Shown: piece after piece, positions 4,447-51,293 of the stretch
How positions within the stretch are numbered: the first letter of the stretch is position 1
Layout of the letters: each line of letters starts with the position of its first letter
Origin: Spizellomyces punctatus DAOM BR117
Lineage: Eukaryota
NCBI GenBank assembly: GCA_000182565.2
Contig: KQ257471.1
Reading direction: 5' to 3' (one strand)
DNA: 64,000 nt
The notes under the pieces: model-generated
The model's input: the letters and a program-made list of their open reading frames with translations, nothing else
Told to the model about the DNA's origin: nothing
Databases searched by the model: none
Program-made: the position numbers and the translations under genes

Positions 4447-4530
4447 CCGGCCTTAGCTCAGTTGGCAGTAGCATTAGACTGTAATGAACTAGCAATCTAA
4501 GGGTCCCCAGTTCGACTCTGGGAGGCCGGA
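4447..4530 (+). tRNA. tRNA-Tyr(GTA) with 10-nt intron
   Basis: Same exons; intron TGAACTAGCA; T-run near 4550. Confidence 0.95.
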
Positions 4531-6990: not shown

Positions 6991-7063
6991 GCTTCCTTAG
7001 CTCAGTTGGGAGAGCGTTAGACTGAAGATCTAAAGGTCTCGTGTTCAATCCACGAAGGGAGCA
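6991..7063 (+). tRNA. tRNA-Phe(GAA), intronless
   Basis: GCTTCCTTAGCTCAGTTGGGAGAGCGTTAGACTGAAGATCTAAAGGTCTCGTGTTCAATCCACGAAGGGAGCA, 73-nt cloverleaf. Confidence 0.97.
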
Positions 7064-27096: not shown

Positions 27097-29579
27097 CTAT
27101 TCGGCATCCTCTCCTTCCAAAGGAGTTGAAACAGCTTCCTCACGACCACCCTTCCCTCGTACCTTCCTCCGGTTCGCCAGCTCCTGCTCTCTCTTCTCAA
27201 TATTTGATGCCAAAAGTGAGGATCGGAATGACAGTGCTCGCGTTCGCTCAATGACTTGCTGGTAGATTGAATTGTACTGTGTGCCCATGATAACCGTGTT
27301 CTGTGAAACAGGGTCCACACATATCAGAGTGCAAATCAACAAGCCGTTGCTCTCATATCACCCACTCACCGTCTTGGAGTCAATCTTGGCGTCCATCCGC
27401 GCATTTCGGATCAGGTTCACAATCCATTTTTCACCCGCTTCAGGGCTCAAATCGAGTTTCTGGCTCACATCCTTGATGTCAATGCATTGGTGGATACGGC
27501 AGTACGTCTCAAATATGAATAACCGTCCATTCTCCTTGAAGTCCTCTTGAAGTGAAACCAAAAAGAAATCGTTGGCAATCACTTCATCACACTCCTTGAG
27601 CTTCTGCTGTGCACCGTCAAAGTCAAAGTTGACGTAAAGACACTCAATAAACTCGGTAATCGGATCCCGGTAGGCATGGGACTCTTGCTGCACTACTTTA
27701 ATCAGGTCTTTGAGGACGTTGCGGCGCTTCTTGTTCACGACGACGGCAGTGGTGAGGTAACGGAGGATCCATGGGCATGCGGTCTGGATGGTATTGAGGT
27801 ATTGCGGTTGGAAGAATAGGTCGGCAATGCCGTCCCGGCCTTTGGGGTGGTTGAAAAAGACAAAGAGAGACCAGTGAATCAGCCAGGATCGCTGTTGGAG
27901 TGCTTGGAGGTGGGAGGTGAAGTTGCGCTGTTCAATCATTTCTTTCAGTCGGTTTAGGTCGTCGTACGCGGTTTCCCAGTTTTGGGTGAGAATCTCAGCG
28001 GCGAGCTTTCCCCAGAGCGAGCTGACGTTGAGGTCGTAGTCTGTGGACTATAGCAAGAAACAGGGTTAGCACATGCCAGAGCATCATTGTGGAAGGCTTA
28101 AAAAGTCGACTTTTACGATGCCCATAACACATCCCAAATTAAAAAAACGCATGACTCACCAAAATACGAAAATGATACAGCATCTCTGCAGCGCTGGAGT
28201 AGTTACCAATGTCGTAATTGTAGAGCGCGAATTCGTAAAGTGCGTTGAGCATTTCAGGTTTGAACTGTAAGAGGGACAATGTCAGAATAGAGCTTCAAAT
28301 TCAAATATTAGAGTATCATTTGCCTTACGTTGTAGTTGTCACTTAGAAACTGGATGTTGGCGAGTTTGTCCTGCTTAAGCTGCTGGATGACGATAGGGTC
28401 CTGGATCATATCCATGATTTCGGAGCTCTGCTCCGTCAATTCCTCAAACTTTTGCAAGACACCCGCACGCCGCTCTTCGTATCCTAGTAGAGGTAACGTT
28501 CGTGGTTAGTCGAGTGGTACTCCAACAATCCTACGGCTACAGTCTACAGTATCTCCGCAAGTCATTCTCGCCAGCAGACTACACATATCCAGACTGCCTG
28601 ATGGCTGAGATGTCGCCCACCCCACCAACATCAAGCCCGTGCAGATGTGCGGCAGATCTTTGAACGAGAAAAGGAAAAAAATATAGTCAGCGATCAGTTG
28701 AGGCATAGAGTCAAAATCCTCATGCGAGAAAGGTCACATCAGAAGATGTTATCTAGCGAATAATGAGGATATAATCATAGATATCATACAGCCAAAGGAA
28801 ACCATGTATCTCATCATTTGTGACCTTCCTTCATGAGTCTCGAATTTTAACAACGTACCTGATGGTTGAAAATATCGTCCACCCCACCAACATCAGCAAA
28901 GAGACAAGCCTATACAAATGTGCGGCTGATCTTTGATAAGAAAGCAAAAAAGTACCGTTAGCAATCAGTCGATGCATAGAGTCAAAAGCTTATGCTAGGA
29001 AGGTCACATCAGAAGATGTTATCTAGCGAATAATGAGGATATAATCATAGATATCATACAGCCAAAGGAAACCATGTATCTCATCATTTGTGACCTTCCC
29101 ATCACGAGGCTCGGGTTTAACAACGTACCTGATGGTTGATTGTCGTCATTCCACTTCCATATCTGAATGCTTCCCATCCACGCTTTCACGAATCCAAATA
29201 CTCTTGCCCTCCATCAGAAGTATCATGCTTACCCGGCTCATTATCTCCCTCATCTTCCAACCCATTAATCTCTTTATAAATCTGATTGGTATAGTCAATC
29301 ATCTTCGTTTTCGAGAGAAGGTCATACTTGGCCTGCATCAAGTCTTTGTGGGAGTAGATCTATTGAAACAGAGTGAGTACTACTTGTCGTCAAGTCCCAG
29401 TAGGTCTGGTGAACCTCCATGTCAATTGCTGCGACTTGCTTTTACAGCAGCAAGCGTCAAGATCCATACTGAATGAAAAGCAACCATACCTCTTTTCCCA
29501 ACAAAAACTCGAGTAATGGAGCCACCATATGGCGGTCCAGGTAGTGACCAATCTTTGTCGTAAGGTCGTGTTGAGCCAT
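27097..29579 (-). CDS. EIF3E: translation initiation factor 3 subunit E (Int6)
   Basis: Six exons in consistent phase: 29579-29490 ([30 protein letters not shown]), 29359-29233, 28483-28329, 28264-28160, 28047-27370, 27300-27097. Hallmarks [59 protein letters not shown] (PCI domain). Confidence 0.96.
28731..28826 (-). ncRNA. C/D box snoRNA, SNORD53-like guide for LSU rRNA (copy 2)
   Basis: Minus strand: terminal stem AGGTCACA/TGTGACCT, C box ATGATGA, guide TTCCTTTGGCTGT, D' ATGA, C' ATGATTA, second antisense TTCGCTAGATA, D box CTGA. Both elements complement the conserved LSU segment UAUCUAGCGAAACCACAGCCAAGGGAAC (recalled). Intronic, same strand as host. Confidence 0.88.
29001..29096 (-). ncRNA. 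C/D box snoRNA, SNORD53-like (copy 1)
   Basis: Identical to 28731-28826 at a 270-nt offset; terminal stem extends to GGAAGGTCACA/TGTGACCTTCC. Confidence 0.88.
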
Positions 29580-30469
29580 GTTGTCCTGCTGACCTCTTGA
29601 TGGTCCGAGAAAAGCAGTTCCTAACAACCAGTTGAGCGGAAATGCTAGCCTGCCAGCCTTTGTGTTGAAGCTTCACCATATTTTCTTGAGCAGCTAACGC
29701 TAGTTGTCATGGCAATGCTTATCACGTGATACAACCGTCACACTTTCACTAGTAGTGATGATGCAGCTTATTGTTATTACTTACATCCTATCCCGTAAAA
29801 AAGTCTTTGAGTGCACTATATCTTCCATAAATATAACAGTATTTCAGTCTTCACGCATTTTATGTATATAGATGCATTATTGCATCACTGTGCCTCACTT
29901 GCTTTTCTAAGTACATCTCAACCACTAAGGTAAGTATAACTATATATAATTCAAGCTTTGTTCTTTGCTTTTGTTGATTTCATTGTTGAGCGCTATATGG
30001 AAACTGCCAACTCTGACACACATCACGGCATGTGCGCCGTCATGTGTTTTCCATGTCACTCCGAGTTAAAATATTGTATTATAAGATTTGAAAGCAACCA
30101 GAAACCTACTAGGCTGCCAATTTAAAGATACGAATAGTGGGGATATAATAGTAATGGATGGCTCCTTTCGTGATAAGCAGTATGTATCTGCACTTTGGCG
30201 TGAATTTCTTCATACAGTGTCTCCACTTCTCGTTCCGCTGCGCTGTTGGTTTGCCTAAGTGTAATTTTCTTCACTCTGCCCCATGCGTTCATCTTTGCTG
30301 CGAACTGCTCGTTAACAAGCGTCACATGGGAGTCACGCTTTCCAGTGGTCTTGATGTCGTGGCCTCAAAGTTACCAACTTCAGACGCTTGTGGTAAAAAG
30401 TGTCGTATGGTATCCAAAAGTCACAATCTACTCCTATCCGGAGAGAATACACAAAACTTGCACAGACTG

Positions 30470-30715
30470 AAACCGGTACGTGATGTGTAAGAAGCAATCT
30501 AGATGGCCACGGTCACGAATGTCAACCTAAAATGGAACTTACGCTATGTTGACATCTCTTGTCGAAACTGCGGGCTGTTCCCGAGCAGTTCACCACTGAA
30601 ACCAGCACGTGATGTGTAGGCAGCAACCATAAACAGTTCACGGTCACCAACGAAAATGGAATACGCATTGTTGACATCTCTAATCGAAACTGCCGGTGGT
30701 TCCCGAGCAGTTCAG
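30470..30715. repeat. imperfect tandem duplication, about 120-130 bp unit
   Basis: Shared blocks ACGTGATGTGTA, CACGGTCAC, AAAATGGAA, TGTTGACATCTCT, TCGAAACTGC, GTTCCCGAGCAGTTCA each occur twice in the same order. Confidence 0.8.
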
Positions 30716-34133: not shown

Positions 34134-34206
34134 GCTTCCTTAGCTCAGTTGGGAGAGCGTTAGACTGAAGATCTAAAGGTCTCGTGTTCAATCCACGAAG
34201 GGAGCA
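34134..34206 (+). tRNA. tRNA-Phe(GAA)
   Basis: Identical to 6991-7063. Confidence 0.97.
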
Positions 34207-34397: not shown

Positions 34398-34470
34398 GCT
34401 TCCTTAGCTCAGTTGGGAGAGCGTTAGACTGAAGATCTAAAGGTCTCGTGTTCAATCCACGAAGGGAGCA
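34398..34470 (+). tRNA. tRNA-Phe(GAA)
   Basis: Identical to 6991-7063. Confidence 0.97.
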
Positions 34471-51220: not shown

Positions 51221-51293
51221 TGCTCCCTTCGTGGATTGAACACGAGACCTTTAGATCTTCAGTCTAACGCTCTCCCAACTGAGCTAAGGAAGC
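51221..51293 (-). tRNA. tRNA-Phe(GAA)
   Basis: Reverse complement identical to the other Phe copies. Confidence 0.97.

Follow-up and report, generated by a model that had tools for sequence, protein, structure and literature searches.

The window analysed here is a stretch of 64,000 nt from contig KQ257471.1 of Spizellomyces punctatus DAOM BR117 (assembly GCA_000182565.2). It carries the gene for eIF3e on its minus strand. In the protein comparison the S. punctatus eIF3e protein (P0001) matched the long exon at 100%, and a six-exon minus-strand model gives the exact translation of this protein of 452 aa. Intron 2 has a length of 749 nt, in contrast to 64-130 nt for the remaining four introns. 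It is bounded by the donor G/GTAAGC at 29232 and the acceptor TAG at 28484, with the branch ACTAAC at 28510. The host features are:

29233..29359, minus strand: eIF3e exon 2 (gene model and spliced contig)
28484..29232, minus strand: eIF3e intron 2, the outer intron, 749 nt, phase 1 (model identical to P0001; contig of run X9)
28329..28483, minus strand: eIF3e exon 3 (gene model and spliced contig)

The whole 749-nt interval is removed from the mRNA, since a contig of run X9 joins exon 3 to exon 2. In this contig introns 3 and 4 are spliced out and exon 3 runs on into the letters of exon 2. A single base of exon 2, near 29242, is different between the X9 contig and the window, so that the contig may derive from another strain. 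In Powellomyces hirtus the first 28 residues of the eIF3e protein P0002 are unrelated and are fused at the start of exon 3. This N-terminus has the appearance of a translated intron end at the same position; the model from another strain (P0122) is normal.

Several other features were observed in the window. A second local duplication of about 125 nt is located upstream of eIF3e (30466-30714) and consists of two blocks that are 83-88% alike; it gave no match in Rfam. Four identical tRNA-Phe(GAA) genes were found at 6991-7063, 34134-34206, 34398-34470 and 51221-51293, two of them 264 nt apart. The loci 4447-4530 and 170-253 received the ARAGORN labels Leu and unknown. Because the Rfam alignment of 4447-4530 shows the anticodon GUA and a short insert, both are more likely intron-containing tRNA-Tyr genes.

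Intron 2 of eIF3e contains two copies of a small RNA unit, which by their sequence are well-formed box C/D snoRNAs:

29000..29099, minus strand: snoRNA copy 1 with terminal stem (sequence, fold)
Parts of copy 1, minus strand: C 29087-29081, guide 29070-29058 (+5 G 29062), D' 29057-29054, C' 29048-29042, extra-pairing element 29030-29020, D 29012-29009
28730..28829, minus strand: snoRNA copy 2 with terminal stem (sequence, fold)
Parts of copy 2, minus strand: C 28817-28811, guide 28800-28788 (+5 G 28792), D' 28787-28784, C' 28778-28772, extra-pairing element 28760-28750, D 28742-28739

Along the minus strand, the elements of each copy are, in order, stem AAGGTCACA, C ATGATGA, guide TTCCTTTGGCTGT, D' ATGA, C' ATGATTA, D CTGA and stem TGTGACCTT. 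Boxes C (RUGAUGA) and D (CUGA) are closed by a 9-bp terminal stem, the internal D' and C' boxes are 5 nt apart, and the length from C to D is 79 nt in both copies. The four boxes and the stem agree with the C/D snoRNAs proposed in a preliminary description of this DNA. Folding with flanks gave z values of -3.0 and -3.4, compared to -1.5 for the 96-nt core alone, and the terminal stem extends differently in each copy once the flanks are included. The Rfam search, which had been suggested as a check, turned out negative: neither snoRNA copy gave a match at gathering in the scan of the window. The weak matches (SNORD12 with 22.6 bits vs. a gathering value of 43, snoZ196, DdR16 and snoU83) were discarded as generic C/D similarity. 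Reads of run X10 over 27960-28999 showed no pile-up at the snoRNA, at a depth near 1.

The identity of the two cores within diverged flanks is real, and with 100 nt (28730-28829 and 29000-29099, spacing 270) the identical run is longer than the 96 nt originally given. The surrounding parts of the units agree in 128 of 174 aligned columns (74%), with indels. As the flanks match at only this rate, the identity of 100 bases is far beyond chance (p about 5e-14). BLAST revealed only two units of the repeat in the window. The tandem also exists in reads, because a 300-nt contig of the DNA-like run X4 leads from one core across the spacer into the next with zero differences; X4 is possibly from the source strain and thus not independent, and the contig shows copy-to-copy identity over 30 nt only. 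The C-to-D part of the pair differs at 0 of 79 positions, with 55-nt flanks that are 78-79% alike. Two paralog pairs of SNORD53-like snoRNAs, the only two used as controls and both from another lineage, have 3 differing columns among 75 and 7 among 76 in the core. This comparison suggests recent conversion on top of selection, and the perfect identity of the copies probably needs gene conversion as well as selection.

Run X4 also contains a 309-nt contig with a third, diverged relative of the unit, which matches the window at 28941-28978 and is itself absent from the window. It resembles the flank before the core, the branch region and the start of the spacer and has no AAG, the loose ends having been compared by eye. 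It is either a paralog elsewhere or comes from another organism in the sample.

A duplex of 13 bp (one G-U) is possible between the guide in front of box D' and ACAGCCAAGGGAA. Counted from D', base five is a G and is placed opposite the first C of GCC. Guide and register as first described hold with target letters taken from an rRNA-like stretch in L096, not from the LSU rRNA of S. punctatus itself; this stretch was located with a sequence pattern and is below the Rfam gathering threshold. L096 is a viral contig in which about 50 nt (395-445) read like eukaryotic LSU rRNA, unlike the sequence that follows. A second antisense element, TTCGCTAGATA, had been overlooked in the preliminary description. 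It pairs over 11 bp, starting 3 nt upstream of the guide duplex. A double-guide function was rejected, as 7 nt separate the end of the element from box D. Methylation was reported to be raised by additional pairings of 4-11 bp that are located in the second guide region and do not border on box D (van Nues et al., 2011; PMC3116282). By analogy, the 11-nt element fits such an accessory, non-guiding pairing. With the snoRNAs of that study it shares a complement of 11 nt that flanks the target, lies in the unused guide half and is set off from box D. Stimulation of methylation is described there, whereas the element here is a putative one.

The target site corresponds to C3848 of human 28S rRNA and C2355 of Arabidopsis (PMC6461891, Table 1). 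For S. cerevisiae the column is blank at this site in Table 1 of PMC3511168, in which the human base is printed as Am3848. The text of a Neurospora crassa survey (PMC2780460) names neither U53 nor a guide numbered 2327, an equivalence that depends on an inferred numbering offset, and SNORD53 has zero occurrences in PMC6984369. L014, the only one of 11 scanned metagenome loci that reaches the gathering value of RF00325 (46.5 bits vs. 46), forms its guide duplex with these 13 target bases in an identical register and likewise pairs over 11 bp upstream. The proposal that the chytrid RNA addresses the same base as SNORD53 is thereby upheld against a member of the Rfam family. The stated position of the SNORD53 guide, in front of box D rather than D', is likewise seen in L014. 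In the chytrid RNA this order is reversed: its guide is located at D' and its extra element in the D half, whereas in RF00325 the guide precedes D and the extra element follows C.

The label SNORD53-like stands for the target base and does not extend to the family. RF00325 was not among the 8 Rfam matches to the snoRNA copies up to E=5, and a profile from 15 SNORD53-like sequences scored the chytrid copies at E=1.3. As these sequence tests fail and the elements are swapped, we regard the RNA as a functional counterpart that would work like U53; membership in SNORD53 is not supported. With SNORD53/SNORD92 (U53; RF00325) and the Arabidopsis U53/snoR37 it shares the guide core, the target base and an upstream-pairing element (11 bp in L014). 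It differs from SNORD53/SNORD92 in the element order, the lack of a significant sequence match and the host. The letters ACATGGTTTC after box C are also present in the SNORD53-like family, in 11 of its 17 rows (counted by eye; the rows are not independent). This is one weak hint of common descent, as 7 of 10 letters could reflect convergent pairing.

The SNORD53-like family consists of L001-L005, L014, L015, L020, L029, L044, L060-L062, L065, L081, L082 and L092. Its contigs sometimes carry two snoRNAs; among the scanned L001, L014, L029 and L044 only L014 was at or above the Rfam threshold. A pattern scan of metagenomes gave 95 stretches, with 76 distinct matches, among which no homolog of the chytrid layout was found. 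Two of the 76 have a 10-bp downstream complement, neither with a following D box. The sole match in a prokaryote genome, L097, has no proper C box and was taken as chance.

The sequence around each snoRNA points to a further level of organization. Both copies are surrounded by signals of short introns, which divide the outer intron into the following parts:

29129..29232, minus strand: 5' segment of the outer intron, 104 nt, ending in CAACCATCAG (the gene model P0121 of a sister species treats it as coding as far as the inner donor)
28931..29128, minus strand: predicted inner intron 1, 198 nt, donor CAG/GTACGT, acceptor AAG (sequence)
28986, 28969 and 28962, minus strand: branch-type hexamers of inner intron 1, followed by a pyrimidine tract and AAG
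28859..28930, minus strand: spacer 1, 72 nt, separating the two inner introns (fusion to exon 2 would give an in-frame stop)
28658..28858, minus strand: predicted inner intron 2, 201 nt, donor CAG/GTACGT, acceptor AAG (sequence)
28715, 28698 and 28691, minus strand: branch-type hexamers of inner intron 2, followed by a pyrimidine tract and AAG
28598..28657, minus strand: spacer 2, 60 nt, a homolog of spacer 1 with the third copy of the pre-donor motif at its end
28484..28597, minus strand: 3' segment of the outer intron, 114 nt, with the outer branch and acceptor (sequence)

The inner donors at 29128 and 28858 match the donor consensus in 8 of 9 positions, compared to 6, 7, 6 and 6 for four true eIF3e introns. 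Sites of this class are rare (10 in 128 kb, both inner donors included), and the only donor-type hexamers within the interval are the outer donor and the two inner ones. Between the copies the donor block is identical in 24 of 24 positions, the neighbouring flank in 10 of 17. Purifying selection or gene conversion restricted to the RNA had been proposed initially. Support for it exists at the RNA, but the restriction does not hold, because the donor block is conserved as well. Both copies also retain three branch-type hexamers, an AG-free pyrimidine tract and the AAG, which ends the inner introns at 28931 and 28658; the inner branch differs only at the purine position. Box D is 51 and 52 nt away from the branch A and 78 and 81 nt from the AG. 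The spacing of box D and branch is near to that favoured for intronic C/D snoRNAs. The chance that a donor and a branch/acceptor are so placed around one snoRNA is 3e-4 to 2e-3. The two units represent one duplicated event and not independent cases. The acceptor AAG lies 27-29 nt from the branch, compared to 13-22 nt in those four true introns for which a branch motif could be recognised. GTACGT is outside of the consensus GURWGY (quoted from PMC7138796), as are two true eIF3e donors.

Taken together, each snoRNA appears to be housed in a complete inner intron of its own within eIF3e intron 2. A complete set of inner donor, branch and acceptor with unbroken outer signals is the structure of a stwintron sensu lato. 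The locus does not belong to the stwintrons sensu stricto ([D], [L], [A]), as none of the outer signals (donor, branch and acceptor) is interrupted and all of them are 104 nt or more away from the inner introns. Intron 1, the outer segments and spacer 1 did not show unusual folding (z -0.8 to 0.3). Spacers that are coding and in frame were rejected, since spacer 1 has a stop and an open frame through spacer 2 would require a weak GC donor. Three copies of the pre-donor motif are present (29129-29139, 28859-28869 and 28598-28608), compared to two snoRNA introns, which suggests either a lost third unit or direct repeats around an inserted unit.

Signals equivalent to the inner donors are also found in the sister taxon Spizellomyces sp. 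'palustris', where they were picked by a gene predictor. The eIF3e model P0121 of this organism has an insert of 42 residues at the junction of interest. In this model the coding sequence continues past the outer donor and is spliced where inner donor 1 would lie, with 23 identities over 35 codons, ending in NHQ. The last six residues of the insert, encoded by a 19-nt exon, match 28616-28598 in 5 of 6 positions, and by implication a donor follows the third copy of the pre-donor motif in this model. As P0121 was computed from a genome for which only DNA reads are listed (PMC6572847), it is a case of signal conservation and not of RNA proof.

Reads from four of 12 listed runs were aligned to 27960-28999, a region that covers one core copy and the whole of inner intron 2, with donor 1 outside. 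An inner junction was not seen in this region in X9, X10, X4 and X1, the cover being thin or uninformative. X9 contributed one mRNA contig and X10 21 short reads, most of them scattered and one across intron 4. Four unspliced contigs were obtained from X4, and no reads of X1 aligned.

To explain these observations, we lean towards a model in which the inner introns are removed first, with one snoRNP per lariat, and the outer remainder afterwards. The short inner introns (about 200 nt) would be recognised and excised before the outer intron, and each inner lariat would be debranched and trimmed to one snoRNP. The remaining outer intron of 350 nt would be removed last, joining exon 2 to exon 3. 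If expressed, the two identical snoRNAs (79 nt from C to D) would guide 2'-O-methylation of the LSU cytidine at the U53/SNORD53 site of plants and animals. The D' guide would set the methylation site, and the 11-nt element of the D half would serve as an accessory contact 3 nt upstream. The pair may have been born by tandem duplication of an inner intron and its spacer, and selection together with recent gene conversion may keep the copies identical. For Lipomyces, removal of nested introns from the inside out was shown (PMC7138796). In the snoRNA clusters of Euascomycetes and yeasts, in which there are no exons between the introns, downstream introns were never found to be removed first (PMC3596301).

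The main rival arises from the reading frame, because retention of the outer remainder or of spacer 1 creates stops. Inner splicing could occur only in a non-productive isoform that is destroyed by NMD, while the coding mRNA loses the 749 nt in one step; snoRNA output would then be uncoupled from the eIF3e protein. We consider this unlikely. In-frame stops follow from retention of the 5' segment (at codon 88), of spacer 1, or of spacer 2 together with the 3' segment. The 'palustris' model uses such segments as exons, and the concept that isoforms of snoRNA hosts are subject to NMD is established (PMC11028025). However, the outer donor GTAAGC corresponds to the consensus and would still be usable after inner splicing, and the site directly after spacer 2, for which the sister model implies a donor, is weak here (GCAGTC, 5 of 9). 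No such isoform was seen in the runs examined, in which the data are thin.

That intron 2 is one ordinary intron of 749 nt that forms one lariat seems rather improbable. The inner signals would then be vestiges of a source host, or would serve only snoRNP assembly or first-step cleavage, and an RNA of about 350 nt with snoRNA ends is possibly formed, as paired snoRNAs in one intron can yield sno-lncRNAs (PMC11028025). The long junction is indeed the only one seen, the AAG acceptor is weak and far from its branch, and the third unit elsewhere lacks an acceptor. It is difficult to reconcile with this that the inner donors, which are stronger than the true ones of the gene and would harm if idle, form the best conserved block after the RNA itself.

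Recursive splicing, known from fungal snoRNA clusters (PMC5033589, PMC3596301), is a very improbable explanation. Here, CAG/GTACGT would act as a zero-length exon, and exon 2 would be joined at 29129, at 28859 and then to exon 3, each step with its own lariat. CAG precedes both inner donors, and spacer 1 contains the branch-type GCTGAT with the first AG after it at 28859. However, there is no consensus branch motif ahead of the CAG at 29129, CAG is also a normal exon end before a donor, and the conserved branch, tract and AAG would be left without an explanation. It is just as improbable that the units are non-functional (a chance C/D-like repeat, a dead copy or copies homogenised by the assembly): Rfam gave zero matches at gathering and read support for the identity spans just 30 nt, but four boxes, a terminal stem and separate complements of 13 and 11 bp to adjacent rRNA-like sequence occur within 79 nt, and the tandem was found in X4 contigs.

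If inner splicing as in the preferred model is real, nesting of whole introns would keep one snoRNA per lariat in a shared coding intron, and the locus would offer a small system in which to test ordered splicing in an early-diverging fungus. The model also predicts that an rRNA methylation common to animals and plants, and blank for budding yeast (PMC3511168), is directed by a guide with swapped elements. A more far-reaching combination of a double nested coding intron, obligatory inner removal, a portable snoRNA-intron module and a rearranged U53-type guide is tentative, and we think it somewhat unlikely to hold as a whole. In that case, output of eIF3e mRNA would be tied to snoRNP production. 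The module would duplicate in place and copy elsewhere, as the third X4 unit may indicate, with the reading frame untouched, and a rearranged U53-type guide would have been kept in a chytrid and be absent from yeast.

Duplication of snoRNAs is ordinary, and the architecture of the locus is a variant of known nested splicing that is backed by sequence and not yet by RNA. In the covered literature, which left aside most subscription papers and the supplements of the fungal snoRNA inventory PMC5824354, no paper was found that deals with the locus or describes a coding intron with two inner introns that each bear a snoRNA. Introns within introns of coding genes are described as stwintrons sensu lato (PMC7138796, PMC8469720). 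The Lipomyces example (PMC7138796) has in common with the eIF3e intron a complete inner intron, unbroken outer signals and the expected inside-out removal. It differs in that here two tandem inner introns carry snoRNAs and start at a distance of 104 nt from the outer donor, not directly next to it; the word snoRNA is absent from the text of the Lipomyces paper. Splicing intermediates were shown in Lipomyces, whereas the inner introns of S. punctatus are predicted from the DNA. Nested splicing in Cryptococcus neoformans (10.1101/224170) likewise involves a small intron inside a larger one, and poly(A) data show the long intron only, which resembles the picture here. It was found by spliceosome profiling, and its description, in the text available, does not mention snoRNA cargo. 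The polycistronic snoRNA clusters of fungi (PMC5033589, PMC3596301) share with the eIF3e locus nested or recursive splicing and a separate intron for each snoRNA. Their hosts are non-coding and their introns abut or overlap, whereas here the host is a coding intron in which spacers of 60-72 nt follow the inner introns.
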